A stretch of 64,000 bases of DNA from Nitrospirota bacterium. Lineage in GTDB: Bacteria > Nitrospirota > JACRHJ01. The stretch covers positions 16,703-80,702 of the forward strand of contig DAHWTK010000001.1 in assembly GCA_027328825.1 (NCBI GenBank), in the 5' to 3' direction. Positions 7,808 through 54,139 of the stretch are shown here, in pieces. Under the pieces are notes generated by a model. The model was not told where the DNA came from and ran no database searches. It worked only from the letters and a program-made list of their open reading frames with translations. The position numbers and the translations under genes are program-made. Position 1 is the stretch's first letter, and every line of letters starts with the position of its first letter.

Positions 7808-7820
7808 AATGTCTCCTTCA

Positions 7821-7854: not shown

Positions 7855-8033
7855 ATATAAAACTGCCAATGCGCTTGTATAGTTCACCTTGAGCATATGT
7901 TCCATTGGCCGCGTCCTTCGATATTGAGATATAAAACTACACCTTTGAGCACCTGTTTCGCTGGCCGCGTTCTTTACCGGGATATAAAACTACCGACGCA
8001 CTTGCATATTTCACCCCTCGCCCTGTCATGGGA
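7854..8033. repeat. three degenerate tandem direct repeats (about 74, 53 and 52 nt) each starting GATATAAAACT(G/A)C
   Basis: units begin near 7854, 7928 and 7981; shared core ...TTGAGCA(T/C)(A/C)TGTT(T/C)C...TGGCCGCGT(C/T)CTT...; located in the gnd-tal spacer. Confidence 0.6.
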
Positions 8034-8058
8034 AATGGGTAAGGGAGAGAGGTTCTTT

Positions 8059-9220: not shown

Positions 9221-11308
9221 TTATGAATATTTTGCCGCCGCCCTCTTTTTCGGCGCAGCGTTTTTCCGGTTTAAGAGCTTCCCGGCGTTCTCGATGATAT
9301 TGTCCGCGGTGAAACCGAACTTCTCCATGTTTACGCTTCCAGGCGCCGATGCCCCGAAACGGTCTATTCCGATGGTTACGCCCGAAGGCCCGGCGTATTT
9401 ATCCCAGCCGAAGACAGAGGCGGCCTCTACCGTTATCCGCGCCGTTACGCCGGGCGGCAGGACCTTGTCTTTGTATTCGCGGGGCTGCATCTCGAACGTC
9501 TCGCGGCATGGCATACTCACCACCCTTGCGGCCACGCCCTCGCCGACGAGTCTCTCATAGGCCTCAAGGGCTGTGTGAACCTCCGAGCCCGTAGCGATAA
9601 TGACAATTTCCGGACGCCCTTTCGGGGCGTCGGCCAGAATGTACGCCCCCATGTGAAGCCCTGCTGCCTTGGCGTATTTTTTCCTGTCGATTACGGGAAC
9701 TTTCTGCCGTGTCAGCACGAGCGCTACAGGCCCGTCCTTTTCCAGCAGCGCCGATTTCCATGCCTCGGCGGTCTCATTGGCGTCCGCCGGACGGATTACC
9801 CTTATCCCCGGCATGGCCCGAAGCGACGCAAGCTGCTCTATCGGCTGGTGTGTCGGGCCGTCCTCGCCAAGGGCGACGGAGTCGTGCGTGAAGACGTATA
9901 TAACCTTGACCCGGGATAGCGCGGCCAGGCGGATGGCGGGCCGCATATAATCCGAGAATATCAGAAACGTGGCCGCGAACGGGATAAGACCGCCGTGCAG
10001 CGAAATACCGTTGCTTATGGCCGCCATCGCGTGCTCTCTTACGCCGTAAGCGATATTCGCCCCGCCGTAGCCCCAGTGTCCTGTGACGGCGCCCTGCACG
10101 CCTTCGTCCCCGCCCGCCGGGTTCTGAAAATCTCCCCTTCCGTCCATGGCGGTATTCGTCGAGGGGTCGAGGTCTCCGGAGCCGCCGATTAGAGACGGGA
10201 TTTTCTCCGCCACCGCGTTAAGCGTCTTGCCGGCGGCGGAGCGCGTGGCAATACCCTTTTTGTCAGGCGGAAAGACCGGAATATCTCCGTCCCAGCCTTC
10301 CGGGAGCTTCGGACCCGTCATCAGCTCCCACTGCGCCAGGAGTTCCGGATATTTCCTGCCGTAGGAACGCATCAGCTCCGTCCATTCCTCCTCCCGACCG
10401 GCGCCTTTCGCCCCCGCCTCGCGGAAGACCTTGAGCGCCTGGTCCGGCACATAGAACACCTCGTCGGGAGGCCAACCCAGATTGTCCTTTGTAAGCCGCG
10501 TCTCTTCGGCCCCAAGTGGCGAGCCATGCGCCTGATAACTGTCCTGCTTGTTCGGGCTTCCGTAGCCCAGGTGCGTACGGACGGCGACAAGCGACGGCCT
10601 GCCCGTCTCCTCCTTCGCCGCCGTGACTGCCCTGGATATTGCGTCCAGGTCGTTTCCGTCCTCCACGCTCTGCGTGTGCCAGCCGTAGGCATCGAAGCGC
10701 TTTATAACGTCCTCCGTGAAGGACAGCTTCGTATCCGCCGAAAGCGTGGTGTGGTTGTTGTCGTATATGTAAATCAGCTTGCCGAGTTTCAGGTGTCCCG
10801 CAAGCGACGCCGCCTCGGAGGCGACGCCTTCCATCAAATCACCGTCGCTCGCTATGGCGAAGGTGCAGTGGTCCACTATCTCGTGTCCGGGACGGTTGAA
10901 AAGGGCGGCCATGTATCGCTCTGCGATTGCCATGCCGACGCCGTTTGCAAAACCCTGGCCGAGCGGCCCCGTCGTACACTCGACCCCGGGGGTATGCCCG
11001 TATTCCGGATGGCCGGGGGTTTTGCTGCCCCATTTGCGGAAGTTCTTTATGTCGTCGAGCGAGAGGTCGTATCCCGTAAGGTAGAGCATTGCGTAAAGAA
11101 GCATGGAGCCGTGCCCGGCGGAGAGGACGAAACGGTCCCGGTCGGCCCAGAGAGGGTTCCTGGGGTTGTATTTCATGAACCTGGTCCACAGGACGTGCGC
11201 AATCGACGCGGTGCCCATGGGCATACCGGGATGCCCGGAGTTTGCGTTTTCGACTGCGTCCACAGCAAGGAAGCGTATCGTGTTGACGCACAGATCCTCA
11301 ATGCCCAT
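9221..11308 (-). CDS. tkt: transketolase
   Basis: TPP-binding region [21 protein letters not shown]-terminal transketolase domains; ORF-track start 11383 may be a 25-codon extension; ATG at 11308 (MGIEDL...) preferred; a GGAGGGG upstream also permits a TTG start at about 11323. Confidence 0.9.
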
Positions 11309-17620: not shown

Positions 17621-18616
17621 TCATGCGATTCGAAAGTCCTTCATAAAGGCCGCCGTCTCCTCCGGTATCGTCACGTTTATGAAAATCCCCGAGCCGAGCT
17701 CGAACCCGGCAACCTGCGTAAGCCTCGGTATTATCTGAAGATGCCAGAGGTAATAGGACTTGTGCTCGTCGTCCACGGGAGCGGTGTTTATAACGAAATT
17801 ATAATCCGGGTTGTCGAGGCTCAGGTACATTTTCATCAGGATTTCCTTGAGAACGCGGGCGAGGTCTGAGATTTCGTCCTCGGTGATATGTCCGAAGGAC
17901 GGCTTATGCTCCCTGGGCATAATCCACGTCTCGAACGGGTAATGCGAGGCGAAGGGGTGTATGACCGTAAAGCGCTTTGTAGAGGCGACTATCCTCTTCC
18001 CCTCCTCAAGCTCCGCCTTCTGAATGTCAAAGTGAAGCGAGCGTCCGGTATTGTCGAAATACTGCGTCGCCACCTCGTATTTCCGCCTGATATACGGCGG
18101 CACGATGGGCGAGGCGACTATCTGCGTATGGGGGTGTTCAAGAGAGGTGCCCGCCTCTCTGCCGTGGTTTTTGAAGATTATTATTACCTTTACCTTGGAA
18201 TCTTTTTTGAAGGCCAGGTACCTGTCCCTGTACATCCTTATCAGGTTCTCGACGTGGCTATCCGACATGAACGGAATGATCTCGTTATGAAGCGGCGTCT
18301 CGATTATTATCTCATGTCTGCCGTAGCCGTGCGTTTCCCGGAAAAACTTCCATTCGTTCCTTACCAGATCCCCTTCGGGCGTTAGGGCCGGGAACTTGTT
18401 CGGAATGGCGCGTATCTTCCAGGCGCCGCCTTCGCTGAAGACGGCAGTCGTATCCGGGGTCAGTCTTTCATTCCCGATGCAGAACGGGCAATTCGGGTCG
18501 TGCGCGGGAAGCGCGACCGGCGCGGTCTTGCGCTTGAAATCGTCCGGGCGTTTTGCGCGCTCTTTAGCGATGATTATCCAGTCGTAGGTAGTAGCATCCT
18601 GCCTTAGCTCCGACAT
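17621..18616 (-). CDS. galactose-1-phosphate uridylyltransferase-like (GalT/HIT family)
   Basis: HPHTQ His-x-His-x-Gln nucleotidyl-transfer motif and CxxC-containing N-terminus; AGGAGGA RBS favours ATG at 18616 over the ORF-track start 18634. Confidence 0.7.
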   Translation of the reverse strand: MSELRQDATTYDWIIIAKERAKRPDDFKRKTAPVALPAHDPNCPFCIGNERLTPDTTAVFSEGGAWKIRAIPNKFPALTPEGDLVRNEWKFFRETHGYGRHEIIIETPLHNEIIPFMSDSHVENLIRMYRDRYLAFKKDSKVKVIIIFKNHGREAGTSLEHPHTQIVASPIVPPYIRRKYEVATQYFDNTGRSLHFDIQKAELEEGKRIVASTKRFTVIHPFASHYPFETWIMPREHKPSFGHITEDEISDLARVLKEILMKMYLSLDNPDYNFVINTAPVDDEHKSYYLWHLQIIPRLTQVAGFELGSGIFINVTIPEETAAFMKDFRIA

Positions 18617-18683
18617 GCGCCGTCCTCCTGGCATAGATTTACCGGCTTTTTAAAATTTATACTACTACCGGGAATATATAAAA

Positions 18684-19754
18684 TCAAGTCTCAAGCTCGT
18701 CGAGGATGGCGGGAACCGCGCCGGCCAGAGGGACTATCCTGTCAACGCCGCCCAGGGAAACCGCTACCTTTGGCATCCCGTAGACGATGCAGGATTCCTC
18801 GTCCTGGGCGATGGTCTTGCCGCCCGCGTCATGAATGGCCTTTATGCCCATGGCTCCATCGTTTCCCATGCCGGTAAGTATAACACCTATAACTCTGCCA
18901 CGCATTACCTTTGCCGCCGATTCCATCATGACGTCAACCGAGGGGCGATGGATTCTGTCCACCGGAAATTTGGAAAGGTGTACGCAAAGCTCTTCTTCGA
19001 CATGCAAAGTCATATGCAGCCCGGAAGGCGCGATAAGGCATTTCCCCGGCCTTACCAGGTCGCCGTCGAACGCCTCTGACACCTCCAGCCTTGAAAGGCT
19101 GTTCAGCCTCTCCGCCAGAGAGGCGGTGAAGCCTATAGGCATATGCTGCACAACCAGAAACGCCGCATTCAAACCCTCGGGGAGATTGGATAATATCTCC
19201 TGCAGCGCGGGCGGCCCGCCGGTTGAAGCGCCGATTGCCACCACCTTCATTTCCTCAGTGTCGGCTTTGACCGGGACATATGCTTGAGGCAGAAAGACTT
19301 GCGGGCGCGCCGGATGGACTGGCGCCAGTTTCTTTACTATTTTATCCGTATCGACGCCGGCCACCGCCCTGACTTTTGATGTAAGTTCTCCCGCGATGCC
19401 AAGTATATCCATTGCAGTATGGGCGGAGGATTTATCGATTACATCGACCGCGCCCAGGTCAAGAGCCCTGAGAGTCACCTCGCCGCCTTCGGAAGTCAAA
19501 GAAGAAAGCATGAGTACCGGCACAGGGCAATCCGCCATTATCATCCTGAGAGCATCCAGACCGTCCATGCCGGGCATCCGCACGTCGAGGGTAACGACGT
19601 CCGGTTTTAGCATCCGGGTTTTTTTATAGCCTTCCTCGCCGTCCGAGGCCGTGTCGATTACCTCTATCATAGGGTCTGATGATAGCATCCTGTACAGGGC
19701 CTTACGCATGAACACCGAGTCGTCCACTACGAGCACTCTTATCTTTTTGGTCAT
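18684..19754 (-). CDS. cheB: protein-glutamate methylesterase CheB (REC + methylesterase)
   Basis: N-terminal receiver RVLVVDDSVFMR...; C-terminal GASTGGP and HMPIGFT methylesterase motifs. Confidence 0.9.
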   Translation of the reverse strand: MTKKIRVLVVDDSVFMRKALYRMLSSDPMIEVIDTASDGEEGYKKTRMLKPDVVTLDVRMPGMDGLDALRMIMADCPVPVLMLSSLTSEGGEVTLRALDLGAVDVIDKSSAHTAMDILGIAGELTSKVRAVAGVDTDKIVKKLAPVHPARPQVFLPQAYVPVKADTEEMKVVAIGASTGGPPALQEILSNLPEGLNAAFLVVQHMPIGFTASLAERLNSLSRLEVSEAFDGDLVRPGKCLIAPSGLHMTLHVEEELCVHLSKFPVDRIHRPSVDVMMESAAKVMRGRVIGVILTGMGNDGAMGIKAIHDAGGKTIAQDEESCIVYGMPKVAVSLGGVDRIVPLAGAVPAILDELET

Positions 19755-19755: not shown

Positions 19756-20646
19756 TTACGTCCCGCTTTTTACGTAAATCATAGTGTTCTTGTGGCGCTC
19801 GGTAATGAATATGTCTGTTATCCGCGCAAGCGACTCGGAATGTCCAAGCAGGAGACAGCCGTCGTCGGCAAGCGCATCATAAAAAGATTCCACGGTCCTG
19901 CATATGGCCGAATCTGAAAAATAAATGAAGACGTTCCGGCACAATATTGCGTCCACGTCCTTGAACATTCTGAACAGATGCTGGTCTACCATGTTTCCGT
20001 GCATGAACCTGACACGCTTTCTTATCCGCTCGTCCAGAAGATATTTTTCGCCATCCCGTAAGAAATATCTGTCTGCCGTTTCCCTGCTGGTTGATCTAAG
20101 AGAGTATGCCGTGAATTCGGCGGAATTGGCTTTCCTCAGTATTTTCCCGTCGATGTCCACACCTGTTATATCTATTTTGCACCGGTCGTAAATCTTGGCC
20201 TCTTCCAGCATTATCGCCAGAGTGTACGCCTCTTCGCCGGATGAGCAGCCACACGACAGTATTTTGAAATTTACGATGCCTTCATTTTTTATTTTTTCCT
20301 TAAGCCGCGCGACAAGCAATGAAATCTGGTTTATCTCTCTAAAAAAATAGGTCTCATTGTTGGTGAGTCGCGGGATTAGTTCCGCCGTCTCGTCCCCGCC
20401 GCGCGGATGGAATTTTAAATAATTGTAATATTCCGAGAAAGAGCCTATGTCCAGAACGGTCATACGCGAAGAAAGCCTCATGGCGAGTGTCTGAATTTTC
20501 GCGTCCTCGAAAAAAATTCCGCAATAATCGTGTATATAATCCCTGATAAGCCTGAATTCGAACTCCGACAAGACCTTTTCTTCATAGGCGCTCTCCCCGG
20601 TCGCACCGGGTGCTGCTTCCGTCTCTTTTATTGCGTTAAAATTCAT
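19756..20646 (-). CDS. cheR: chemotaxis protein methyltransferase CheR
   Basis: 296 aa; SAM-MTase fold with ETYFFRE and SCGCSSGEEAYTLA motifs. Confidence 0.85.
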   Translation of the reverse strand: MNFNAIKETEAAPGATGESAYEEKVLSEFEFRLIRDYIHDYCGIFFEDAKIQTLAMRLSSRMTVLDIGSFSEYYNYLKFHPRGGDETAELIPRLTNNETYFFREINQISLLVARLKEKIKNEGIVNFKILSCGCSSGEEAYTLAIMLEEAKIYDRCKIDITGVDIDGKILRKANSAEFTAYSLRSTSRETADRYFLRDGEKYLLDERIRKRVRFMHGNMVDQHLFRMFKDVDAILCRNVFIYFSDSAICRTVESFYDALADDGCLLLGHSESLARITDIFITERHKNTMIYVKSGT

Positions 20647-20693: not shown

Positions 20694-22673
20694 TCAGGCA
20701 TGTGCCGAAACGTTTTCATGCAGCGCCGCAAGAGCCCTGGCAGCTATTTTTCGCACCATGACGTCTTCATCTTTCAGCGCGGACTGCAGCGCTCCGCAAA
20801 CCCCATCGCCTCCTGCCTTGCCGAGGGCCTCGGCCGCCGCCGCCCTGACGCTCCAATGGGTATGCGAGAGAAGCTCCGTCAGCAGTGGAACTGCTTTCTC
20901 GCATCCAATCCGGCCAAGCGCCTGGACTGAAGCCATGAGAATGTCCCTGTCGCCCGCGCAAGCAGTTTCAAGCACGGGCTGGCAGGCCTCTTTTCTTCCC
21001 AGCGCCCCAAGCGCTTCGAGGGCCGCGACCGCCAGTTCGCGCGGTGAATCGTTCAGGATTTCCATGAGCGAGAAAATGGCGATCGGATCCCTTTGTTCCT
21101 TCAAGGCTCCGATGGCATAGAAACAGAACCGTTCATCCCTATCCTTGACAAATTTTATAAGTCTTTGCAGTATATGCGGGTCCCTCACCTTTCCCATGGA
21201 TACAACTGCCTGTTGCGCCACCTTCAGGCTTTTATCGTTGAGGGCCAGGAGCAGGCATGGGACCGCCTTTTCTCCGCCGATGCGTCCGATGGCTTTTACG
21301 GCTACTTCGCGTATCGTTTCCCTGGGGTCGTCGAGGAGAGCTGCGAGCGGTCTTATCGCCTCCTCTGCCTTAACTCTTCCCAGTGTCTCTGCGGCCAGGC
21401 GCATATACCTTACGTCTCCTCCGCTCTGTATGTATGGCAGGAGCCTGGTAAAAACAATCCCGGGCGAGAGATCCGAAAGCGCGGCTACCGCAGCCTCCTG
21501 CACTTCTGGGCTTTCGTCTTCCAATGCGTCCGCCAGATCGCCCACCGCCTCGGACGCCCCTATCCTGCCAAGCGATATAGCCGCTTCCGCGCGTATCATG
21601 TTCATATCGTCATGGATCATCCGTATAAGATACTCCACCCCCGGCCCCGGACCCAGGCTTCCCAGGTAACCGACTAACGCCTGCCGCACGCGGCCTGAGG
21701 GATTTTTCATGTGTTTCCCGGCTTCAGGCAACGCCGCCGTTCCAATTTCGCGAAGGGTCTTCAGCGCCGCTGCGGCCAGATTATCGTCTTCAAGCAGTTC
21801 AAACGCCCTTCCCGAAGCCGCCTCGTATCTGAGAATCCCCGCGGCCATAAGCGCGTTCTCTTTCAATTGATATTCGCCGCCTTCGAGAATTCCAATTAAA
21901 TATGCCCCGAAATTCTGCCCGCCCAGCTCAGTACGAAGCTTCTCCTCTACGGACAAGACCTCCTCGATATGCTCATTATCGCCGGACATTTTTTTGAATA
22001 TTTCCATCAGCGCCTGGAAGGCCGCGTCCCGATGCGTGGAACCCTCCAGGCGAAGAATATTCAAAAGCGGATCAATGGCTTGCGGGCTTCCAATATTTCC
22101 AAGCGCCTGGATTGCTACCGGGGATAGAAGCTCATTGTCCAGATATTTTAAAATGCAGGGAACGGCGCGCTCGGCCTTCAAATTCCCAAGCGCGGCGATA
22201 ACGGGATATGCGCTCCAGAAGTCGCTTTTATCCAATACCTCCATAAGCGGCGTTACTGTCGACGGGTCGCCTATCTTGCCAAGAGCCTCTGCGGCGGCAT
22301 GCGATACATTGGGCTCGTTATCTCTTAGCGCGCTCAGCAGCACCGGGATTGCGGCCTGGCTTCCGATAACCCCCAGCATGACACAGGCAAAATTTCTGAT
22401 TTCCCAGTCCGGGTCGGCGGCGAGGCGCGACAGGGCCGGCATGGCATCTTCGCCGAAACCGATGAAGACCTCCATGGCCGAGTTCCGTCTGTCCGCATCG
22501 CTGTTATCCCTTAAAGCCTCCTCAAGACAGGCTCTGACTTCGGTAAACCCTGCCTGCAAGATCCGCGCCTTCGCCGCCTTCCTCGTCGCAGGGTTTCCGG
22601 TCTTCATCGCAGAGAGGAGGTCGGGGATATCCGCCGCCCCAGAGAGACCCGCATGTCCGGCCCGGTCAGACAT
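20694..22673 (-). CDS. HEAT/PBS-lyase-like repeat protein
   Basis: 659 aa of reiterated ...A(A/V)xALGxIGxxxAVxxLxxLLxDx... HEAT repeats; embedded between two cheR genes. Confidence 0.7.
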   Translation of the reverse strand: MSDRAGHAGLSGAADIPDLLSAMKTGNPATRKAAKARILQAGFTEVRACLEEALRDNSDADRRNSAMEVFIGFGEDAMPALSRLAADPDWEIRNFACVMLGVIGSQAAIPVLLSALRDNEPNVSHAAAEALGKIGDPSTVTPLMEVLDKSDFWSAYPVIAALGNLKAERAVPCILKYLDNELLSPVAIQALGNIGSPQAIDPLLNILRLEGSTHRDAAFQALMEIFKKMSGDNEHIEEVLSVEEKLRTELGGQNFGAYLIGILEGGEYQLKENALMAAGILRYEAASGRAFELLEDDNLAAAALKTLREIGTAALPEAGKHMKNPSGRVRQALVGYLGSLGPGPGVEYLIRMIHDDMNMIRAEAAISLGRIGASEAVGDLADALEDESPEVQEAAVAALSDLSPGIVFTRLLPYIQSGGDVRYMRLAAETLGRVKAEEAIRPLAALLDDPRETIREVAVKAIGRIGGEKAVPCLLLALNDKSLKVAQQAVVSMGKVRDPHILQRLIKFVKDRDERFCFYAIGALKEQRDPIAIFSLMEILNDSPRELAVAALEALGALGRKEACQPVLETACAGDRDILMASVQALGRIGCEKAVPLLTELLSHTHWSVRAAAAEALGKAGGDGVCGALQSALKDEDVMVRKIAARALAALHENVSAHA

Positions 22674-22687: not shown

Positions 22688-23617
22688 TTAAAAAGGCTTG
22701 GCATAATAAACGGCATCTCCTTCGGTAATAACATTAAACTCGTGTTCAAAGAGGTGCAGGGGTTCGGAATCTCCTGTGAAAAGAAATCCGCCGGGCCTCA
22801 GGCATCGGTAAAGGGTGTTTACCAGCCGCGCCTGCGCGGTTCTGTCGAAATAAATCATAACGTTTCTGCAAAAAATAAAGTCGAAATACCCTGTCGCGTC
22901 CAATTTCTTTACCGGCCCGCCCGCCGATCCAAGCTCCATAATGCCGCGCCTTGCCGAGATATCTTTTAAATTTAACTCGTAGAATTTCACTATGCTTGCA
23001 GGAAGCTCCTTTACGGCAAGGCCTCCTTCGCTTCTCTCCATATACCGCGACAGCATATCCGGGGCTATATCTTTCACGGAACTGTTACCGTAAACACCCA
23101 TCCTCGCACGGTCCAGAACTAAACGGTTTATGTCCGTGGCCGTTATCTCGATATCCCATGCCCGCGGGAACTTGAGACTGTCGAGAATCGTAAAGGCGAT
23201 TGAATATGTCTCCTCGCCCGTGGAACAACCCGCGCTCCAGACCCTGAGATACATAAACGGATGCCTCTCGCCCCATTTCCATGGCCGCGTTTCGTCGCCC
23301 CAGGATTTAACGACTTCCCTGTTTTTCTTCTCTATCATCTCGGGGAGTATGCTTTCCTTGAGCGCCCTGAACTGGGATGGATTTCTGAAAAACCGCGTTT
23401 CGTTTACCGTCAATTCTTCAAGCAGACTCTGCATTTCTTCCGGCTCTTCCAGAAGACAATTATAGTAATTCTCGTAATCGGAATGTCCGCCGGCGATAAG
23501 GCGCTCCCGCAGGTGGTCTTCTAAAAAGACTTGCTTGGTTGCCGGGAAGAAAAGGTCGCACCTCTCCCTGACGAGCTTGTTGAATCTGGCAAGTTGTTCC
23601 TGCGTTATGGTCTGCAA
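22688..23617 (-). CDS. cheR: CheR-type MCP methyltransferase (second copy)
   Basis: 309 aa; ETRFFRNP, SAGCSTGEETYSIA motifs. Confidence 0.8.
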   Translation of the reverse strand: MQTITQEQLARFNKLVRERCDLFFPATKQVFLEDHLRERLIAGGHSDYENYYNCLLEEPEEMQSLLEELTVNETRFFRNPSQFRALKESILPEMIEKKNREVVKSWGDETRPWKWGERHPFMYLRVWSAGCSTGEETYSIAFTILDSLKFPRAWDIEITATDINRLVLDRARMGVYGNSSVKDIAPDMLSRYMERSEGGLAVKELPASIVKFYELNLKDISARRGIMELGSAGGPVKKLDATGYFDFIFCRNVMIYFDRTAQARLVNTLYRCLRPGGFLFTGDSEPLHLFEHEFNVITEGDAVYYAKPF

Positions 23618-23618: not shown

Positions 23619-26147
23619 TTAGCCCCTCGCCGCCGGCTGATACGCTATACCCTGCATGACCTTATAAGCCTCGCAGTGCATGCAGTTGGCAAGCTTTGTA
23701 CGCGCGTCTCCCTGCTGAACGCCTTTGCACCACGTGCTGTCTATAAGCCAGCAGCGCTTCTCCGGGTTCTGGTATGCCGGACATTTAAGCCTGAATTCCG
23801 TGGCGCAATGCAGGACGTCCCAGCAGTTAATATTAATTTCCCTGGTCTTGAATATGCTTATCGCTTTCTGAAGTGACTCCGCCTGATACGTCAGGTTCTC
23901 GGCGGCGGAGCCCATCTGCTTGACCGCGCCCAGGTTCTCCCTCGCAATATCCGAAATATTTTCAACCGCCTTTACGACCAGTTCTCCGCCGCGCTTCTGT
24001 TCAGCGGTCGCATTGGCCACTATTTGGGTCATGGAATTCATGTTTTCGACCGCCTTAATTATCTGAGCGCTTCCAGAAGCCTGCTCTTTTGTAGCAAGAG
24101 AGACTTCGTTCGTGACGCGGTTCATGTCCTCCACGGCCAACCTTATCTGCCTGCCGCCGGTAGATTGCTCTTTCATCGCGCCTGCGAGCTGGCGTGTAAT
24201 GACGTTCATATTCTCCACGGCATTTTTAATCTGATGTGATCCGGACACCTGCTCCTTCACGGCCTTCGTAACTTCATCCGCCGCTTTATTCATATTCTCG
24301 ACCGACTTCAACACCTGCGCCGCGCCAGAGGCCTGCTCGGAAGATGCGTTATTTATTTCGGTCATAAGGCGGTTAGTGGCGCCGACGCTTTCCAGTATTC
24401 TGGAGAGCGATGCCCCGGCTTTGTCCGCAAGTTTCTTGCCTTCCAATGTTTCGGCGGCTCCCGCCTCCGCAGTACTGACAGCCTGGCCGGTTTCTTCCTG
24501 CACCTGCTTTATTACTTCGCCTATTTCCTTGGTGGCCACTACCGACCGCTCTGCCAGTTTGCGTACCTCGTCCGCAACAACGGCGAATCCCCTGCCGGCG
24601 TCGCCTGCCCTGGCGGCTTCTATAGCCGCGTTAAGCGCAAGCAGGTTTGTCTGGTCGGCTATTTCCTCAATCACGCCGACTATCTTGCCGATTTCTTCCG
24701 AGCGCCTGCCAAGACTGCCCATGACCTTGGATGTGGCATTCATAGTCTCGGCAATCCGGTTTATACCCTCTATGGTGTGTTCCACGGCCTCGCTTCCGGC
24801 CTTTGCGGCTTCCGACGCCTTCTGGGATATGCCGTCCGCCTCGGATACATTCATTGCAACCCGCCGTATTGAGGCGGCCATTTCCTCAATTGTCGCCGAT
24901 GTCTCGGATACCGTGCCGGAAAGCCTGGAGGCGTTTTCCCCTACCTGGCCGATGGAGGCGAGCATCTGTTCTATTGTGGCCGAGGTCTCTTCCACCGATG
25001 ATGACAGACCTTCCGAATCCTTCGCAACTCTGTCTATCGAGGCCGTCATCTGTTCTATTGTGGCCGATGTCTCGGATACGGATGAGGCCATCGCCTGGCT
25101 GTTTTTAGCGACCTGCTCTATAGAGGCGACCATCTGGTTTACACTTGCCGAAGTCATATCGACATTTGAGGCGAGTTGGCCAGCGTTATCGGCTACGCTT
25201 TGAATGGATGCGGCCATCTCCTCCATGCTGGATGACGTCTCATCCGCCGCACTTGCCTGTACCGCCGCACCTTTGTTTATCTGCTGGGCGCTTTTCCCTA
25301 CCTGGTCCGCCGCCGAGGCGACCTGCGCCGCGGTCTGATTGGCCGTCTCGACCATTTCGCTCAGGTTGCCTACCATTTTATTGATGGTTTCCCCAAGTAT
25401 GCCAAGCTCATCACTTGTATGCACTCTGATTCGCTGCGTAAGGTCTCCCCCGGCCACTTTGTCGGCGATCCTTATATTTTCCGCCAGCGGTTTCGTTATG
25501 CTCCGGGTTAGATACAGGCTGACGCCGATGCCTATAATAACCGCCACCGCTATGAACATAACTATAATTATGATAACGTGCCTCGCAAAGTCGTTCACCA
25601 CCTGTCCCATCCCATTCATCCGTTTCCTCGATGCGTCCTTCAAATCATTGGCCGCGGCCTCCATCTGATGTATGGGGTCCTTATGCGGGACCATCTCCTC
25701 GTTGCCTTCCTGGGGAGTCTTTATCTTCCCGGCATCCATCATTGCTTTAGCCTTCAAAAAGGATTCTTCATAGGTTGTCGCCTCCTCCTTCATCCTGGAA
25801 AGTGTTTCCCTTTCTTCCGGTAGGTATACGACCTTATCGAGATTTGCCAGCCTTTCGGAAAGCTTGACCTGCCAGCTCTTCCAGGTATTGAAATAATTGC
25901 CATCCGTCTTTTTGTCGTCAATATTCAAAAATACATCCTTCTCGCCCCGCCTCAGTTCGAGGATTTCGGCCCTTGCCGCAGCCGCATTCTCCGCTATGGC
26001 CGCATCGGTCTGAAGCATTACGGTGGTCTTTTTAGAGACGTTGGCAACCCCCCAGTAACCCGCGCCGCCGACTGCGACCATCATAAGCAAAACGATGCCG
26101 AACCCGATTATCAGCCGCGTACCTATATTCATGTCCTTGTTTCTCAT
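23619..26147 (-). CDS. methyl-accepting chemotaxis protein (TM-periplasmic sensor-TM-HAMP-long signalling domain-C-terminal 7-Cys module)
   Basis: 842 aa; two TM segments flanking a roughly 170-aa periplasmic domain, HAMP, long heptad-rich MCP signalling domain, then the CWDVLHC...CMHCEAYK tail. Confidence 0.9.
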
Positions 26148-26169: not shown

Positions 26170-26778
26170 TTACCGCACGCACTCCACGTCTTTCCATATC
26201 ACGTTTTCGAAATCAAGAAGTATAATGAGCCGTCCGTCCATCTTGCCAACTCCATTTATATACCCATTTCCGGCGCCGGATATTTCTTCCGGAGGCGGCT
26301 CCACCACGTCGCCCGGCATCTTGAATACCTGAGATACCCTGTCAACCAGAAGTCCGAGCGCCTTGCCGCCGCCAACCGTTTTGTCGCCGGCCTCGACCAC
26401 TATTATCCTCGAATCCTTCACCACATCCGCATATCCCATGCCTATCCTGGCCTTCAGGTCCATCACGGGGATTATGCGCCCTCTGAGGTTTATAACGCCC
26501 TTGACGTGCGCGGGAGCGTTCGGCACCCACGTCCATCTTCCGGCCCTTATAATCTCCTGTACCCTCACTATTTCCAGCGCATATTCCTCTTGTCCCAGGA
26601 AGAATCCAACCAGGTGAAGCATCTCTCCCGCGGACTTCGCCTGATTATGCCGGCCAGTTTCGCCCTCAGGCCCGTGCGGTGCTTCCGGCGGGGCTCCCGC
26701 CCGCCCCAGTATCTCTTCCGCAAGCCCGGAAGTAGGCAGCGTTATTTTACGATTCGGGTCCGGCACGCCTTCCGTCAT
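26170..26778 (-). CDS. cheW: chemotaxis coupling protein CheW
   Basis: 202 aa CheW-like domain; start overlaps cheA stop (ATGA). Confidence 0.85.
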   Translation of the reverse strand: MTEGVPDPNRKITLPTSGLAEEILGRAGAPPEAPHGPEGETGRHNQAKSAGEMLHLVGFFLGQEEYALEIVRVQEIIRAGRWTWVPNAPAHVKGVINLRGRIIPVMDLKARIGMGYADVVKDSRIIVVEAGDKTVGGGKALGLLVDRVSQVFKMPGDVVEPPPEEISGAGNGYINGVGKMDGRLIILLDFENVIWKDVECVR

Positions 26779-28481
26779 CTCATACCTCCCTTGACAACCT
26801 GTCTATATGCGGCTTTTTCCACGATACCGGCTATGTCCAGTATCAGAACGACTCTTCCGTCTCCCAGGATAGTGGCGCCGGCAATACTCTCGCCTTCCCC
26901 CAGATACTCGTCGAGCGCTTTAATCACTACTTCCTGTCTCCCCATCAGACCGTCCACCATCAGGGCGGCCATCTTATCGTCTCTCCCGACAACTACAGCG
27001 TAGGCACGGTTGGATGGCGCGGCAGTCTCGCGGCCTGCTCCGCCAATCCACCCTGCTTCCGCCGGATCATCCTGTCCGAAAAGCCTGTCAAGCCTGACGA
27101 GCGGAAGAATCCTGTCCCGGAGAAAGATTACCTCGTCTCCGCTGATGGTCTTTATATCCCCGGAGTTGAGCTTGACGCTCTCAACCACGGAAGAAAGCGG
27201 AAGCGCGTAGAGCGTCCGGCCAGATTTCACCATCAGCGCGGATATTATTGCCAGCGTAAGAGGAAGCTTTATTGTGAATGCAGTGCCTGCGTCGGGCCTG
27301 TTTTTAACATCGATACTGCCGCCGAGTTTCGTTACGCCTTTTTTCACCACGTCCAGACCCACGCCTCTGCCGGATACTTCAGTAATTTTTTTTGCAGTTG
27401 AAAATCCAGCTTCAAAGATAAGCTCTGTCGCGCCTTGATCGCTTAATCCCGATACGAATTCAGCCGTATAAATCTTGGACGCCCTGGCCCTAACGGCATT
27501 TATATCTATGCCGGCCCCGTCGTCCGATACCGTAATAATTATATGGTTCCCCTCCTGTGCGGCTGAAAGCGTTATCTCTCCGACGCTCGATTTTTTCTTC
27601 AGGAGCCTTTCCTCCGGTCCTTCTATGCCGTGATCTACCGCGTTTCTTATGAGGTGTATGAGCGGCTCTCCAATCTCGTCGATAACCGTCTTGTCCAGTT
27701 CGGTTTCTCCTCCCTGGAAAACCAGATTTATCTCCTTGCCCCTTTCACGCGAAAGGTCCCTGACCATACGCGGGAAACGCTGGAATACCTGCCGTATCGG
27801 CAGCATCCGCACCTTCATTATGGCTTCCTGGAGCTGGGAGGTTGATTTGAATATCTCCGCCGTCACTTCCGAGAGATCGTAAGCCACCGTCTTGTCCAGC
27901 TTCAGTTCGCTGAAAATTCTGCTTGTCATCGCCAGCCTGGTCCTGTGTATTATCAGTTCGCCCACTAAATTGAGAAGATGGTCCAGGCGCTCGAAATCAA
28001 CCTTGAGTATATTGGATTTATCCGCAATATATCTGAAGCTGTCGCCCCTGGATTTTGGTATTGCCGCCTGAGAGCCGGCCTCGCCTTCCGTTGTTTCGCC
28101 AAGGGCCTTTATCTGTTCGGCAAGGTCTATTTCTGCTTTAGGATTTTCTCTGAGCCGTTCGAGCGCTTCTCTCATGACAGCGACCGAGTCAAACAGTTTC
28201 TGGAGCTTATCGTCGGTCAAGCCGGAGCCGTCTTCGAGCAGCTTTTTGAAAATCCCTTCGATATGGTGAACATACTGCTGAAGAGACTCAAACCCCATCA
28301 TTCCCGAATTCCCTTTAAGGGTATGCAATGACCCCAGCAGATCGGATATAAGCTCGATATCCAGACTGCCCTGGCCCAGATATTTCTCCATCTCGATAAG
28401 CGAGGAGTCGAGCTTGTCTATATGCCCGCTGGCGTCCTCAAAAAACTCATTTATAAGGCCGGAGGTATCGAAATCTTCCAT
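26775..28481 (-). CDS. cheA: chemotaxis histidine kinase CheA (P1-P3-P4-P5; no obvious P2)
   Basis: HPt HTLKGNSGMMGF; HATPase N-box HLIRNAVDHGIE, G-boxes DDGAGID and GRGVGLDVV; C-terminal CheW-like domain. Confidence 0.9.
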   Translation of the reverse strand: MEDFDTSGLINEFFEDASGHIDKLDSSLIEMEKYLGQGSLDIELISDLLGSLHTLKGNSGMMGFESLQQYVHHIEGIFKKLLEDGSGLTDDKLQKLFDSVAVMREALERLRENPKAEIDLAEQIKALGETTEGEAGSQAAIPKSRGDSFRYIADKSNILKVDFERLDHLLNLVGELIIHRTRLAMTSRIFSELKLDKTVAYDLSEVTAEIFKSTSQLQEAIMKVRMLPIRQVFQRFPRMVRDLSRERGKEINLVFQGGETELDKTVIDEIGEPLIHLIRNAVDHGIEGPEERLLKKKSSVGEITLSAAQEGNHIIITVSDDGAGIDINAVRARASKIYTAEFVSGLSDQGATELIFEAGFSTAKKITEVSGRGVGLDVVKKGVTKLGGSIDVKNRPDAGTAFTIKLPLTLAIISALMVKSGRTLYALPLSSVVESVKLNSGDIKTISGDEVIFLRDRILPLVRLDRLFGQDDPAEAGWIGGAGRETAAPSNRAYAVVVGRDDKMAALMVDGLMGRQEVVIKALDEYLGEGESIAGATILGDGRVVLILDIAGIVEKAAYRQVVKGGMR

Positions 28482-28488: not shown

Positions 28489-28881
28489 CTATACGGCTAC
28501 CGTTTGTATTTCCGAGAATATTCTCTCTATGAGGTTGTGCAGTTCCGCGGGCTGAAAAGGCTTTTTGACATATCCCTTGGCGCCGAGCGTCAGACCGCGG
28601 AGAGTGTCTTCCTCCTTGCCCTCGGTGCTCACTATGATTATGGGCGGGGCCTTGAAGTCCGTCTCTTTGCTTAAGGCCTCAAGGAACTGAAGGCCGTTCA
28701 TTACCGGCATATTTATATCCAGGAGGATAAGCTCTATGCCTTCTTCCTGGGAAAGCTTGTCCAGGGCCTCAAGCCCGTTCATGGCCGCGATAAGCCTGCA
28801 GTCCTTGTAGCGCATGAATACCAGTTTATACATCTGGTGCAGCAGGCTTGAATCGTCCACTATAAGAATTTTCTTGAGCAT
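28489..28881 (-). CDS. cheY: CheY-like response regulator
   Basis: 130-aa single receiver domain (ILIVDDS..., LLDINMP, K near the C-terminus). Confidence 0.85.
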   Translation of the reverse strand: MLKKILIVDDSSLLHQMYKLVFMRYKDCRLIAAMNGLEALDKLSQEEGIELILLDINMPVMNGLQFLEALSKETDFKAPPIIIVSTEGKEEDTLRGLTLGAKGYVKKPFQPAELHNLIERIFSEIQTVAV

Positions 28882-28892: not shown

Positions 28893-29291
28893 CTATGCCG
28901 CGGAAGCCGGGCCCGGAACCGGAATCCCAAGCCGGTTCACCATCATAAGCAGGTGGTCAATATCCACCGGTTTTTCATAGTAGTAATAAGCTCCCCGTTT
29001 GAACGCTTCCTCCTTTATTTCCGGAGAACCGTAAGCGGTCATGATTATTACCGCCGTCACCGGGTTCAATCCTTTCACGTATTGCAATAACTCAAGACCT
29101 TCAATGCCGTACATGCCGCTCATCCGGATATCCGCTATCACCAGGTCAAATGAATATCTGGCCAGCGCTTCCTCTGCGGCCTCTATCTTTGAGCAGGTTA
29201 TAACCTCGACTCCGTCAGCCTTCAGGCAATATGAAAGGCTCAGAAGTATGGTAGGTTCATCATCCACGATAAGAATTCTTTTCATCATCAT
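28893..29291 (-). CDS. single-domain response regulator (receiver)
   Basis: 132-aa receiver domain ILIVDDEPT..., ADIRMSG. Confidence 0.8.
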   Translation of the reverse strand: MMMKRILIVDDEPTILLSLSYCLKADGVEVITCSKIEAAEEALARYSFDLVIADIRMSGMYGIEGLELLQYVKGLNPVTAVIIMTAYGSPEIKEEAFKRGAYYYYEKPVDIDHLLMMVNRLGIPVPGPASAA

Positions 29292-29331
29292 GCACCCCTT
29301 GTATGTAAAATCTATTACCGCCCAAGATATA

Positions 29332-29347
29332 GCAACAAGAATGCCAC
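29332..29347 (-). promoter_or_regulatory. sigma-54 promoter TGGCAT-N5-TTGCT about 40 nt upstream of the REC/cheY/cheA operon start
   Basis: minus-strand ggTGGCATtcttgTTGCT, exact -24 GG / -12 GC spacing. Confidence 0.55.
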
Positions 29348-29421
29348 CTGAAATAGCGCAATAAAATCAGGAGGTTGCCTGCAAATTTTATTATTGGAAT
29401 TTTAGGGTGTGCGAAAATTAT

Positions 29422-29440
29422 ACAATACAGGTTGTATTGT
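29422..29440. promoter_or_regulatory. palindrome ACAATACA-ggt-TGTATTGT, candidate enhancer (UAS) about 80 bp upstream of the sigma-54 promoter
   Basis: read directly; lies between ntrC-like stop and the -24/-12 element. Confidence 0.4.
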
Positions 29441-29444
29441 TTTG

Positions 29445-30800
29445 CTACAGGAGGTCGTACTTTTTCAGCTTGTTTATCAGCGTGGAGCGGCTTACACCCA
29501 GGAGTCGGGCGGCAAGGCTCTGGTTTCCGCGAGAGAAATCAATAGTCTTTTTTATATGGTCTTTTTCCAGCCTATCGAGCGAACACGGGGCTGAAGGATT
29601 GTTTTGCTGCCCACTCTGGCCCATTTGCGCCTTCTTTTCGAGCAGTTCTCTGGGCAGATGTTCGGGGGTTATGGCCGGTCCTTGCGACAGTATAACGGCG
29701 CGCTCAATAACGTTCCTAAGCTCTCTTATGTTGCCCGGCCACGAGTAGGCGAGCAGGTAGCCTTCGCAATCTTCCGAGATTTCGGTTATATTCTTTTTAA
29801 TCGCCGCGCTTTGCGAGAGAAAATACTTAGCCAGGTCGAGAACGTCGTTCTCCCTTGCCCTGAGCGGCGGCATATGCACAGGCATGACGCATAGCCTGTA
29901 GTAGAGATCTTCCCGGAAGTTTTTCCGGTTATCCGGGTCGGACAGCTCTTTGTTGGTTGCGGCCATTATTCGGACGTCCACCTTTATGTCCCTCGTCCCG
30001 CCTACTCTCCGGAATGTCTTGGTCTCTATTACCCTTAGAAGCTTCGGCTGAAGATTCATCGACAGTTCGGCTATCTCGTCCAGGAATACCGTCCCGCCGT
30101 CGGCTACTTCCAGAAGCCCCTTTTTCATTTCCTTCGCGTCGGTATAAGCGCCTCTTTCGTGCCCGAAAAGCTCGGATTCAAGAAGATGCTCCGACAACGA
30201 TGCACAGTTAATGTCCAGGAAAGGTTTGTCCTTCCTTGCGCTCAAGCCGTGAATGGTCCTTGCCGCAAGCTCCTTGCCGGTGCCGGATTCGCCGGTAATC
30301 ATTACCGTGGTATCCGGGTTTTCCGCGAGCAGTCCTATTATGAGCAGTATCTTATGAATTTCTCTGGAACTTCCTATAATACCAGCATGAGAGCCGCCAT
30401 GCCTCATTTTCAGGACCAGATTTTCCTTCTTGAGACCCTGCGTTTCCAACGCCCGTTCAACCGCTATCTCCAGGGCGTCGATGTCCACCGGTTTGGTAAG
30501 ATAATCATAGGCCCCTTTCCGTATGGCCTGCACAGCATCGGGCAGATTGGCATAGCCCGTGAGCATTATGACCATGATGTCGGGCTGTTCGGCTTTTATC
30601 ATTTCAAGCGCCTGAAGCCCGGTTCCGTCCGGAAGCCTGTTGTCCAGAATGACCAGGTCTGGCCTGAGCGTCCATGCCAGCTTAAGTCCCTCCGCTATAG
30701 TTGCGCCGGCCGATACGGAAAATCCTTTCCCGGTAAACAGGTAGCTTAGGGATTTGCGTATAGTCTCTTCGTCGTCTATTATCAATACCGAATGCGGCAT
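29445..30800 (-). CDS. sigma-54-dependent response regulator (NtrC family: REC-AAA+-HTH)
   Basis: 451 aa; Walker A GESGTGKE, GAYTDA (GAFTGA variant) sigma-54 contact loop, C-terminal Fis-type HTH; start immediately follows the kinase stop. Confidence 0.9.
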   Translation of the reverse strand: MPHSVLIIDDEETIRKSLSYLFTGKGFSVSAGATIAEGLKLAWTLRPDLVILDNRLPDGTGLQALEMIKAEQPDIMVIMLTGYANLPDAVQAIRKGAYDYLTKPVDIDALEIAVERALETQGLKKENLVLKMRHGGSHAGIIGSSREIHKILLIIGLLAENPDTTVMITGESGTGKELAARTIHGLSARKDKPFLDINCASLSEHLLESELFGHERGAYTDAKEMKKGLLEVADGGTVFLDEIAELSMNLQPKLLRVIETKTFRRVGGTRDIKVDVRIMAATNKELSDPDNRKNFREDLYYRLCVMPVHMPPLRARENDVLDLAKYFLSQSAAIKKNITEISEDCEGYLLAYSWPGNIRELRNVIERAVILSQGPAITPEHLPRELLEKKAQMGQSGQQNNPSAPCSLDRLEKDHIKKTIDFSRGNQSLAARLLGVSRSTLINKLKKYDLL

Positions 30801-32540
30801 TTAAGTCCTTTCTGGTGTTACGGGGATATATGGTATGTCTATATTGACGCTCGTGCCCTGGCCCAAGAGGCTTTTTACTGCAATCGTTCCGCCGTGGTCT
30901 TCGATTATCTTGCGGCAGATGGCGAGTCCGATGCCGGTCCCCTTTTCCTTGGTGGTAAAGAAAAGGTCAAATACTTTAGGCAGGTCCGCCTCCGGTATGC
31001 CTGCACCCTGGTCCGATATTGCTATTTTGATTGTATCGTCCGACCGGCTCGCTGAAATTCCCATTCTGCCGCCCTCATGTGAGGCGTCTATTGCGTTTAT
31101 CAGGAGATTCAGGAAAACCTGCCGTATCTGATTAAGATCAATCATAGCCATTTCTATGCCGGAACACTTTCTTACTACATTGAGACTTTTTTCGCTGATT
31201 GCAACAAAATGAAATTCCAGGACGTTTTCTATAAGCGAACATATATCGACGGGCTGTCTATGCAGTTTTACTGTCCGGTTATACAGAAGCATATCTTCTA
31301 CAAGCCGGTTCAGCCTGCTTGTCTCCGAGAGCATGGCCTGCACTAGCGGCCTGATAGGATTTTCGTCACTCGTTTCCCTTGCTATTATCTGTGCGACCGA
31401 GGTAATGCCGAAAAGCGGGTTTCTTATCTCGTGTGCGACGCCGGCCGCGACCTTCCCGACCGCCGCAAACCGCTCCTTCTCACGGAGATCGTCCTGGAGT
31501 TTTTTTATCTCGCTCAAATCCCTGAACACAATAATAAAACCTTCCGGATTCCCGTCCCTGGAAATAAGATGGTTGTTGTTGAAACCTACCGGGACGGCTC
31601 CTCTTGGCGTAAGAATTTCCACCTCGTCGCCTATTATCCGCGGCTTGACCTCCAGCATACCAGCCGCCTCCGGATAAATGAGCGTTATGTCCTTCCCGAT
31701 TATTGCCTCGCGGTCGCACCCCAATATCTCAGATCCGGAGATGTTTATCATTTTTACCTTGCCAGTCAGATCGGTAACGAGGAGCCCTGCGGCCATATTG
31801 AAGATGATACTGTCAAGCAGATGCTCGTTTTTCTTTATTTTCCCCATGTTTTTTATATTGCTCATAAGACTTGCGGCGGAGTTGGCAAAAAGGTTCAGGG
31901 AGTTCAGATCATCCTGGGTTATGGGCTTTTTACTCACATGGTTGTCGGCGCATATAAGGCCGAAATTCCTTCCCATCGTATTCGTCTTGTATATCGGGCA
32001 GTTTCCGCAAATATCCATCCGGGAAAGCATGTTGTCGCTGCCGCGCAGCATTCTACAGCTATTTTCTATAACCCAGCAGGACAGAAGGGGACTGTTTCTT
32101 GACGGGCAATTCTCGTCATTGCATCCAAAATATTTCCAGCATATCAGTTGACGATTTTCCGGATTATATGTTACCAACGGAGCTACGGCTATCTCTGCGC
32201 CGCCGGAGCGCCCTTTTATTATTCCGCAAAGTGGCTTCGATGTTGTAAAAGCCTCGCTCTTGTCGAGTTTGAGTGCTTCGAGCCCGGACACCTCCAACGG
32301 AGTCGACAGTTCTTCGCCTGCCGTGCTATGACATGCAGCGAGACGGCGGGTACCATCGCTATCGTCTATAAGCCACAGACATACCCTGTCGAACCCTATG
32401 GCCTCCGCCACTGCCCAGACTGCTATATTGGCCGCCTCCTGCAAGTCGCCTGAAACTCTTACGCGGTTGGAAAACCAGTTAAGAATAAATAGCTGGTTCA
32501 GTTTTTTTTCGTATAAATCACCTGTCGATTTGAATGTCAA
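30801..32540 (-). CDS. sensor histidine kinase (GAF - 7-Cys module - PAS - HisKA - HATPase), cytoplasmic
   Basis: 579 aa, no TM segments; H-box HEIRNPLFGI; G-boxes; Cys module at aa 134-185; TTG start with GGAG RBS. Confidence 0.85.
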   Translation of the reverse strand: MTFKSTGDLYEKKLNQLFILNWFSNRVRVSGDLQEAANIAVWAVAEAIGFDRVCLWLIDDSDGTRRLAACHSTAGEELSTPLEVSGLEALKLDKSEAFTTSKPLCGIIKGRSGGAEIAVAPLVTYNPENRQLICWKYFGCNDENCPSRNSPLLSCWVIENSCRMLRGSDNMLSRMDICGNCPIYKTNTMGRNFGLICADNHVSKKPITQDDLNSLNLFANSAASLMSNIKNMGKIKKNEHLLDSIIFNMAAGLLVTDLTGKVKMINISGSEILGCDREAIIGKDITLIYPEAAGMLEVKPRIIGDEVEILTPRGAVPVGFNNNHLISRDGNPEGFIIVFRDLSEIKKLQDDLREKERFAAVGKVAAGVAHEIRNPLFGITSVAQIIARETSDENPIRPLVQAMLSETSRLNRLVEDMLLYNRTVKLHRQPVDICSLIENVLEFHFVAISEKSLNVVRKCSGIEMAMIDLNQIRQVFLNLLINAIDASHEGGRMGISASRSDDTIKIAISDQGAGIPEADLPKVFDLFFTTKEKGTGIGLAICRKIIEDHGGTIAVKSLLGQGTSVNIDIPYIPVTPERT

Positions 32541-32639: not shown

Positions 32640-32657
32640 AGCAATAAATATGCCAAT
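32640..32657 (-). promoter_or_regulatory. sigma-54 promoter TGGCAT-N5-TTGCT about 100 nt upstream of the histidine kinase
   Basis: minus-strand atTGGCATatttaTTGCT; identical hexamers and spacing to the 29332 element. Confidence 0.55.
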
Positions 32658-32966: not shown

Positions 32967-33049
32967 GCGAGAGTGGCGGAACTGGCAGACGCGCCGGACT
33001 TAGGATCCGGTGGGCAACCATGGGGGTTCAAGTCCCCCCTCTCGCACCA
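32967..33049 (+). tRNA. tRNA-Leu (anticodon TAG), CCA encoded
   Basis: acceptor stem GCGAGAG/CTCTCGC, anticodon stem CCGGA/TCCGG with loop CTTAGGA, long variable arm, T-arm GGGGG-TTCAAGT-CCCCC, discriminator A, CCA. Confidence 0.85.
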
Positions 33050-47897: not shown

Positions 47898-48241
47898 GGA
47901 GGTAGTTCCGCGAATGCAAGCTCGTCTCCAGGCTCAACGCCGGCAAGGCTTCCCGCCGCGGCCTCTATGACGCCCTTTGCGCGCGGATAAATCCTCGACA
48001 GCCTGCCCGGCCCTATGCCCCTGACTACGCCGACGGCCTTTCTGTCCCGGTCGTAGAATACCGCGTCTATCGGGAATCTCATCCCGAAGGTGTGTATGGA
48101 GATGCAAGGCGATATTACAAGCGCCTGCCCGTCCGGAAGGCCATTCTTTCCGAGGAGCCCCGTAAGCCGGGCGAGGAAGTTCTCCGCATAAAAAACCTCG
48201 CGGGCTATGCAGGAATTTTTTGTCCGGTCGAATATCATCAT
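47870..48241 (-). CDS. DUF192 domain protein
   Basis: 123 aa; ...ALVISPCISIHTFGMRFPIDAVFYD... matches the DUF192 pattern often found in tad loci. Confidence 0.55.
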   Translation of the reverse strand: MMIFDRTKNSCIAREVFYAENFLARLTGLLGKNGLPDGQALVISPCISIHTFGMRFPIDAVFYDRDRKAVGVVRGIGPGRLSRIYPRAKGVIEAAAGSLAGVEPGDELAFAELPPWPDTQEKG

Positions 48242-49161: not shown

Positions 49162-49169
49162 TTCCGCAC

Positions 49170-50141: not shown

Positions 50142-50151
50142 ACGGCCTCCG

Positions 50152-51489: not shown

Positions 51490-51505
51490 GGCGCCTCCGC
51501 AGAAT

Positions 51506-54138: not shown

Positions 54139-54139
54139 T

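Follow-up and report, generated by a model that had tools for sequence, protein, structure and literature searches.

The subject of this analysis is the minus-strand region 29292-29449 of a 64,000-nucleotide stretch of DNA from an uncultured Nitrospirota bacterium (termed the window). The region joins the gene of an NtrC-class sigma-54 enhancer-binding protein to a chemosensory (che) operon. All genes concerned lie on the minus strand. A sensor histidine kinase (30801..32540) is followed by the enhancer-binding protein, termed the regulator (29445..30800), and then by the operon. Its nine genes encode, first, the stand-alone receiver REC1 (28893..29291), then REC2, a CheY-like receiver with NCBIfam matches of the CheY/CheB type (28489..28881), CheA with Hpt, H-kinase_dim, HATPase_c and CheW domains (26775..28481), CheW (26170..26778), a methyl-accepting chemotaxis protein (MCP) with 4HB_MCP, HAMP and MCPsignal domains (23619..26147), a first CheR (22688..23617), a HEAT-repeat protein (20694..22673), a second CheR (19756..20646) and, as the last che gene product, CheB with a REC and a methylesterase domain (18684..19754). 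These assignments were made with Pfam, and they reproduce the gene order that had been read from the DNA in a first-pass annotation (kinase, ntrC-like gene, REC-cheY-cheA-cheW-mcp-cheR-HEAT-cheR-cheB). Intergenic gaps within the operon do not exceed 47 nt, and no convincing minus-strand terminator was found inside it.

The kinase starts with TTG and combines a GAF-like domain, a Cys-rich insert, a PAS domain, HisKA and HATPase_c (Pfam); no obvious membrane segment was seen in it. The insert (residues ~135-190) follows the pattern W-x-x-F-x-C-x4-C-x8-9-CW-x5-C-x13-14-C-x2-C and is kept in 11/11 orthologous kinases, including larger REC-GAF-PAS hybrids. No Pfam name applies to this stretch, which is a candidate sensing module (metal, Fe-S or redox).

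The regulator is a complete REC-AAA+-HTH_8 protein (Pfam Sigma54_activat, 6.9e-64; Response_reg; AAA_lid_14) with the phospho-acceptor Asp53, Lys103, Walker motifs and a Fis-type helix-turn-helix (HTH). Its sigma-54 contact loop reads GAYTDA. Across the wider subfamily (13 homologues) the loop is GAFTDA or GAYTDA with an invariant Thr. Both are among the loop variants expected to retain activation, and Desulfovibrio vulgaris regulators that carry them have been given regulons (Kazakov et al., PMC4641369). The gene was thus rightly called ntrC-like. Among the named NCBIfam families, PrsR, AtoC, NtrC, GlrR, ZraR and FlgR included, none has a curated cut-off that the protein reaches. The best match is AtoC (NF008469; 416.5 against a cut-off of 714), followed by the PEP-CTERM-box response regulator PrsR (TIGR02915; 405.7 bits against 502.6). 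NtrC reaches 378 against 559, and the FlgR and FlbD scores are far under their cut-offs. By these family scores the regulator is an unnamed relative of PrsR and AtoC, with a related promoter architecture.

From the regulator gene to REC1 the minus strand reads TAG-caaaACAATACAaccTGTATTGTataattttcgcacaccc...caggTGGCATtcttgTTGCTatat...aaggggtgcATG. The central part of it, ...caggTGGCATtcttgTTGCTatat..., contains TGGCAT-tcttg-TTGCT, a putative sigma-54 promoter termed P_che (TGGCATTCTTGTTGCT, 29331..29346, minus strand) with GG at -25/-24 and GC at -13/-12. The two doublets are 10 nt apart, which is the canonical spacing, and the core is of the TGGCAC-N5-TTGCW type. The first-pass annotation had placed this element at 29332-29347, about 40 nt before the che genes; its exact GG/GC spacing is borne out, the coordinates shift by at most 1 nt (29346-29331), and the end of the motif lies 39 nt from the ATG at 29291. 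TGGCAY-N5-TTGCW matches the 64-kb window twice, against 0.07 matches expected, and none of 100 shuffles reached two. Each of the two copies is directed at the 5' end of one of two adjacent operons. When one mismatch to TGGCAC-N5-TTGCW was allowed, no further copies were found in the window. With the usual spacing between -12 and +1, transcription is predicted to start at about 29320 (29318..29322, minus strand), which would give a 5' untranslated region (5'-UTR) of ~29 nt with a ribosome-binding site AAGGGG at 29300-29295.

A scan of a genome collection with the regulator recovered three loci from Nitrospirae metagenome-assembled genomes (L001-L003), whose regulators are 87-92% identical to that of the window. 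A protein database contained homologues from 82% down to ~46% identity, of which eight at 55-79% were taken (L022-L029). All eight have the kinase, the regulator, REC1, REC2, CheA and CheW, as well as the MCP, CheR and the HEAT protein where the available sequence reaches that far. The core of P_che and its position are kept in 12 fetched orthologous loci and in three further loci recovered by the pattern search described below. In the 12 fetched loci, whose regulators are 55-92% identical, TGGCAY-N5-TTGCY is found 95-105 nt past the regulator stop codon and 40-80 nt ahead of REC1. Canonical forms among the orthologues are TGGCACGAATCTTGCC and TGGCACCGTTATTGCT, with TGGCACG in L024 and L025. 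TGGCAT-N5-TTGCT itself is retained in 3/3 of the close relatives L001-L003, where the most variable stretch of the whole regulator-REC1 region is the 5'-UTR just downstream; in the alignments this 5'-UTR diverges among relatives in which P_che stays constant. Because position and core are conserved in every orthologous locus examined, P_che behaves as a functional sigma-54 promoter. Its rarity and its conservation show the -24/-12 element to be genuine, and from them we infer the sigma-54 dependence itself.

Further upstream, the region contains two tandem dyads, which form a putative upstream activating sequence (UAS). Dyad 1 (TGTAGCAAAACAATACA, TGTA-N9-TACA; 29433..29449, minus strand) overlaps the stop codon of the regulator gene and is centred at about -121 from the predicted start. 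Dyad 2 (TGTATAATTTTCGCACA, TGTA-N9-CACA; 29408..29424, minus strand) is centred at about -96, 25 bp from dyad 1, and between them lies an 8-nt spacer (ACCTGTAT, 29425..29432, minus strand) that varies in all orthologues. In an alignment of 11 regions the CTGTA, TACA, TG and ACA columns are invariant. An explicit parse of every locus gives TGTA-N9-TACA, a spacer of 7-8 nt, and TG(T/A/C)(A/C/G)-N9-(T/C/G)ACA. The dyads are 24-26 bp apart, centre to centre, in all loci. Dyad 1 starts 100-105 nt 5' of TGGCA in every fetched locus, and dyad 2 is separated from TGGCA by 59-63 nt. The offset of dyad 1 is thus constant over the 12 fetched loci; the three scan-derived loci have the dyad as well, but there the search pattern itself demanded it. 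Within the close clade the dyad 2 block is unchanged.

The window has one exact TGTA-N9-TACA, dyad 1, against ~0.6 expected from mononucleotide shuffles. With a symmetrised matrix, dyad 1 scores 21.3 bits and dyad 2 17.8 bits, and the best unrelated site in the window 11.3. In the held-out locus L029, which did not contribute to the matrix, the dyads score 17.3 and 21.2 bits, are 24 bp apart and start 103 nt before TGGCACAAATCTTGCT. In 294 kb of non-orthologous loci the matrix found three weak singleton matches and zero tandem pairs. We therefore regard the two TGTA-N9-TACA dyads as the conserved, putative activator sites and infer that the regulator binds them.

Other elements in this region were also considered. 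A promoter scan found no sigma-70 promoter on the minus strand of the che intergenic region. A TATAAT at 29422-29417, noticed by eye inside dyad 2, was rejected: it lacks a -35 partner and is absent from the more distant orthologues. Between the UAS and P_che lies a tentative IHF-type bending site (AATCAGGAGGTTG, WATCAR-N4-TTR; 29365..29377, plus strand), to which its position lends support. Among the window and L001-L003 the consensus positions are constant and the N4 differs, and a TAAC core occurs in 10/11 aligned loci (L023 has TAAG). The site is held to be tentative because the motif is not significantly enriched in the window, with four occurrences against 2.7 expected.

Regulators of ~51% identity (L030, L031) stand in unrelated contexts, with neither dyads nor a sigma-54 motif downstream. 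Metagenomes were searched for the composite of dyad, dyad, 56-66 nt and TGGCAY-N5-TTGC, which matched 24 stretches. Five of the 24 are the orthologous module, flanked by a regulator of 58-62% and/or a REC1 of 75-78% identity, and L042, L046 and L053 are new modules of this kind. Several other matches adjoin regulators of 37-43% identity and drive other genes. In L038, L047 and L055 PEP-CTERM proteins are found behind a dyad-dyad-sigma-54 arrangement with TGTAAA-N5-TTTACA dyads, and L055 has a regulator ~39% identical to that of the window just upstream of the PEP-CTERM promoter. In all, the kinase, the regulator, the dyads, the promoter and the che operon are inherited together, and the conservation of the motifs extends over about 15 loci. 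Apart from the regulator, no DNA-binding protein accompanies the module.

This co-inheritance bears on a different direction of control. In Myxococcus xanthus the Che3 system has the NtrC homologue CrdA as its output; CrdA is under the control of the kinase CrdS as well, and CheA3 is a phosphatase of CrdA~P (PMC3147164). By analogy the regulator of the window could mainly be an output of CheA or be modulated by it, with the che promoter under another activator or the main targets elsewhere. The adjacency of a kinase, an NtrC-like regulator and a che cluster is indeed the same in both organisms. However, Che3 is without a CheY, whereas the window operon encodes two stand-alone receivers. Moreover, the dyads and the sigma-54 promoter track the regulator clade and vanish outside it, and no other DNA-binding protein travels with the module. 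We therefore consider such an arrangement unlikely as the main explanation, although a cross-regulation of the regulator by CheA could coexist with control of the che promoter through the dyads.

The first-pass annotation had named a different element as the enhancer, a perfect palindrome (ACAATACA-N3-TGTATTGT, 29422..29440) that begins 4 nt past the regulator stop codon TAG (29447-29445). It is exact, and it is unique in the window even when three mismatches are allowed (0.02 expected). It lies at a suitable distance upstream of P_che, and its TACA and TGTA are shared with the conserved half-sites. That a conserved activating region lies at the expected distance after the regulator gene has therefore stood, but what is conserved is not the palindrome. 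The latter takes in the right half of dyad 1, all 8 nt of the spacer and 3 nt from the beginning of dyad 2, and it is perfect in the window genome only, both in comparison with L001-L003 and with the more distant orthologues. A single arm change is seen in L001; L002 shows three mismatched pairs plus one G-T pair, and L003 carries an indel. In contrast, the flanking TACA, TTGTA and TTTTCGCACACC are invariant in L001-L003. The lack of constraint on the spacer explains why the palindrome has eroded in L002 and L003 but its flanks are intact. In the orthologues of 55-79% identity the gap between TACA and TGTA is 7-8 nt and not 3 (e.g. TACAgccattcTGTA in L028), whereas the outer TGTA and the inner (T/C/G)ACA stay fixed at N9. 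This spacing shifts by 4-5 nt, more than a rigid dimer recognising the palindrome as a conserved site could accommodate. It is thus quite unlikely that the 8-bp palindrome (29440-29422) is itself the dimer-binding enhancer. As judged from these alignments, it is a lineage-specific by-product of the overlap of dyads and spacer.

The same nucleotides might act as RNA, as a weak intrinsic terminator or as a 3'-stabilising hairpin of the kinase-regulator transcript. The element begins 4 nt past a stop codon and is followed by AUAAUUUUC, and its predicted fold has -7.3 kcal/mol with z = -2.4. The stem, however, is AU-rich with two G-C pairs and was not called by a terminator scan, its fold is lost in L003 (z = -0.9), and the arm changes in relatives are non-compensatory. 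In addition, a search of both intergenic regions against Rfam returned no family other than the tRNA-Leu. A natural separation of the regulator gene from the che promoter is seen in L025, where a PepSY-like gene is inserted between the regulator and the che operon (9345-11055), together with GC-rich repeats of the repetitive extragenic palindrome (REP) type. The inserted gene has its own sigma-54 promoter, TGGCACGTAATTTGCT at 9523. The dyads of this locus are not at the regulator 3' end, which is 1.5 kb away, but 103 nt 5' of the che promoter, and the TGTA of dyad 1 is intact without an overlapping stop codon. Because the dyads stayed with the che promoter, they are tied to the promoter, which argues against a terminator or a 3'-end hairpin. 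On the basis of the terminator scan, the weak and non-conserved fold and the L025 insertion the terminator reading was rejected, and a role of the element as RNA in general appears very unlikely. Finally, that the -24/-12 match is fortuitous and the che genes are co-transcribed with the kinase and the regulator from an upstream promoter would fit their common strand, their close spacing and the absence of a terminator between the regulator gene and REC1, but it is extremely improbable given a core that keeps its position in about 15 loci amid a diverging UTR, changes toward the canonical TGGCACG in L024 and L025, and survives the L025 insertion.

The second TGGCAY-N5-TTGCW copy, which the first-pass annotation had overlooked although it had recognised P_che, is a putative promoter of the kinase gene, termed P_HK (TGGCATATTTATTGCT, 32640..32655, minus strand). 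It lies ~100 nt before the kinase start codon, between this TTG and the divergent tRNA-Leu (32967-33049) and tig-clpP-clpX. In the window and L001-L003 the DNA upstream of the kinase has different neighbours and a column identity of 53%, yet TGGCATATTTAKTGC is found in 4/4. Its preservation amid otherwise unalignable DNA is therefore a clear footprint for P_HK. L023 has TGGCATTTTTATTGCT at the equivalent place. In the window no dyad stands upstream of P_HK (best 3.9 bits). L023 is the only locus with tandem dyads before P_HK (at 5911 and 5935, 24 bp apart and ~196 nt from TGGCA), and L002 has one weak dyad site there. The kinase-regulator operons of L024-L029 gave no sigma-54 match. Single dyads are found just 5' of this operon in L028 (18.8 bits), L029 (14.4) and L025 (12.1). 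Autoregulation of the kinase-regulator pair is thus plausible across the family but unsupported for the window genome. No k-mer was found that the promoter regions of the che operon and of the kinase gene share across four genomes. Two observations on this region may be added. A sigma-70-like TTGCCA-17-CATATT (32683-32655) overlaps the -24 region of P_HK. In L003 the DNA just 5' of the kinase promoter (~7780-8168) resembles coding or mobile-element DNA until ~60 nt from the -24 element, and it may have displaced a UAS.

Taken together, we consider it probable that the che operon is transcribed from a classical enhancer-dependent sigma-54 promoter region at 29292-29449, run by the adjacent regulator via the two dyads. 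Sigma-54 RNA polymerase would form a closed complex at 29346-29331. Phosphorylation of the regulator on Asp53 would come from the co-encoded GAF/PAS kinase with its Cys-rich insert, the predicted phosphotransfer partner. Dimers of the regulator would then occupy 29449-29433 and 29424-29408 (~-121 and ~-96) and form the active oligomer, which would contact the polymerase through DNA looping, perhaps aided by an IHF-like bend near 29371. ATP spent by the regulator would open the promoter, and a transcript from ~29320 would run through all nine genes, REC1, REC2, CheA, CheW, MCP, CheR, HEAT, CheR and CheB. The circuit proposed in the first-pass annotation, from the kinase through the NtrC-like regulator and sigma-54 to the che genes, is in this sense a sound deduction, as the co-inheritance of its parts argues, though a deduction all the same.

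Several points weigh against this interpretation. Neither rpoN nor an RpoN box was found in the window or the fetched loci, so that sigma-54 has to be assumed to be present in the genome. The missing dyads at P_HK leave the logic of the regulon incomplete. The dyad matrix was derived from the loci that it describes, so that L029 and the control loci are the only independent material. The distinction between palindrome and dyads leans on the group of 55-79% identity, the close relatives being too similar. In L022 dyad 1 has N10 rather than N9; this is probably a sequencing indel, in an assembly with frameshifted genes. Finally, with no terminator between the regulator gene and REC1, upstream read-through could also express the che genes.

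Regarding the operon and its surroundings, REC1 resembles the regulator's own receiver (37% identity, E = 3e-18) more than REC2 (26%). Between loci with regulators of only 58-63% identity, both receivers retain 75-80%. In L024-L029 an extra gene for a REC-HD protein (HD_5, HD-GYP-like) stands between REC1 and REC2 (e.g. L024 9953-11014); it is absent from the window clade, L022 and L023. Its presence in the distant orthologues suggests a second-messenger output, and no flagellar genes were found in the window or the orthologous loci. A possible role of REC1 is that of a phosphate sink for the kinase, by which negative feedback would be built in. It is conceivable, if rather doubtful as a whole, that the module is a self-contained, sensor-gated chemosensory system in which the soluble kinase with its insert of six to seven cysteines decides, by way of the PrsR/AtoC-like activator and the TGTA-N9-TACA dyads, whether the pathway is made, the output in most relatives is a second messenger through REC-HD and not flagellar, and REC1, as a paralogue of the activator's receiver, serves as the phosphate sink. 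Two neighbouring features were also noted. A GalT/HIT-like gene (17621-18634, minus strand) follows CheB after a 49-nt AT-rich gap in which no terminator was called, and may or may not be on the che transcript. A Tad/Flp pilus cluster (48238-56841, minus strand), ~20 kb from the che operon, encodes RcpC/CpaB, a secretin, TadE/G-like proteins, a REC-ParA/MinD-like ATPase, a T2SSE ATPase and two T2SSF proteins.

The kind of system proposed here is textbook; what is new is the regulator subfamily, its motif and a dedicated chemosensory target in a Nitrospirota lineage. The analysis provides a testable cis-regulatory map for a che operon in an uncultured Nitrospirota, where no genetics exists. It also defines a predicted binding motif and a target for an unnamed subfamily of enhancer-binding proteins, which can be used to annotate its regulon in metagenomes. 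Furthermore, it indicates that a whole chemosensory pathway can be put under a dedicated cytoplasmic sensor kinase instead of a flagellar hierarchy, which bears on the role of the many "extra" che clusters in environmental bacteria. As regards method, the case shows that a perfect palindrome, however striking, may arise as a by-product where two real sites overlap.

Tandem upstream dyads are familiar from NtrC at glnAp2, and related sites are those of NifA (TGT-N10-ACA) and GlrR (TGTC-N10-GACA). Like systems of the NtrC/AtoC class, the locus combines a REC-AAA+-HTH_8 protein, two dyads ~100-120 nt before GG-N10-GC, a possible bend site, a neighbouring kinase and a dyad of the TGT...ACA type. 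It differs from them in its dyad, TGTA-N9-TACA (equivalent to TGT-N11-ACA), in its chemosensory target, in the GAYTDA loop and in scores under the cut-offs. The PrsK/PrsR system is also similar. PrsR promoters have a TTTACA motif, a spacer of ~63 nt and a sigma-54 motif (Haft et al. 2006, PMC1569441), which is the same layout, the spacer in the present loci being 59-63 nt, and the composite pattern also matched PEP-CTERM promoters by regulators 38-39% identical to that of the window. However, PrsK is transmembrane whereas the window has a soluble, Cys-rich kinase of the GAF/PAS kind, a che operon takes the place of the PEP-CTERM genes as target, and the regulator stays below the PrsR cut-off. 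With the CrdS/CrdA-Che3 system of M. xanthus the locus shares the grouping of a kinase, an NtrC-like regulator and a che cluster, and the type, a chemosensory system with an "alternative cellular function". There, however, a pathway without CheY ends in the regulator, whose targets are unknown, whereas here the cis-elements put the operon, with its two CheY-like receivers, downstream of the regulator.

Finally, sigma-54 promoters have been described for other che operons. In Rhodobacter sphaeroides FleQ together with E-sigma54-2 activates cheA3/A4-cheW4-cheR3-cheB2-cheY6 (PMC7277832), and sigma-54 promoters have been predicted ahead of Geobacter che clusters (PMC2577667) and of two D. vulgaris chemotaxis operons (PMC4641369). 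In view of these precedents, the statement of the first-pass annotation that a chemotaxis operon under dedicated two-component/sigma-54 control is uncommon was too strong. The locus described here shares with them a che operon with a sigma-54 promoter. It is not embedded in a flagellar cluster, as would be expected for a flagellar sigma-54 hierarchy of the FleQ/FlrA/FlgR type. Whereas those operons depend on a flagellar master regulator within a flagellar hierarchy or on an activator that is unknown, the operon of the window would answer to a dedicated, adjacent and co-inherited two-component pair, and it is this dedicated, adjacent two-component activator that is the less usual part.

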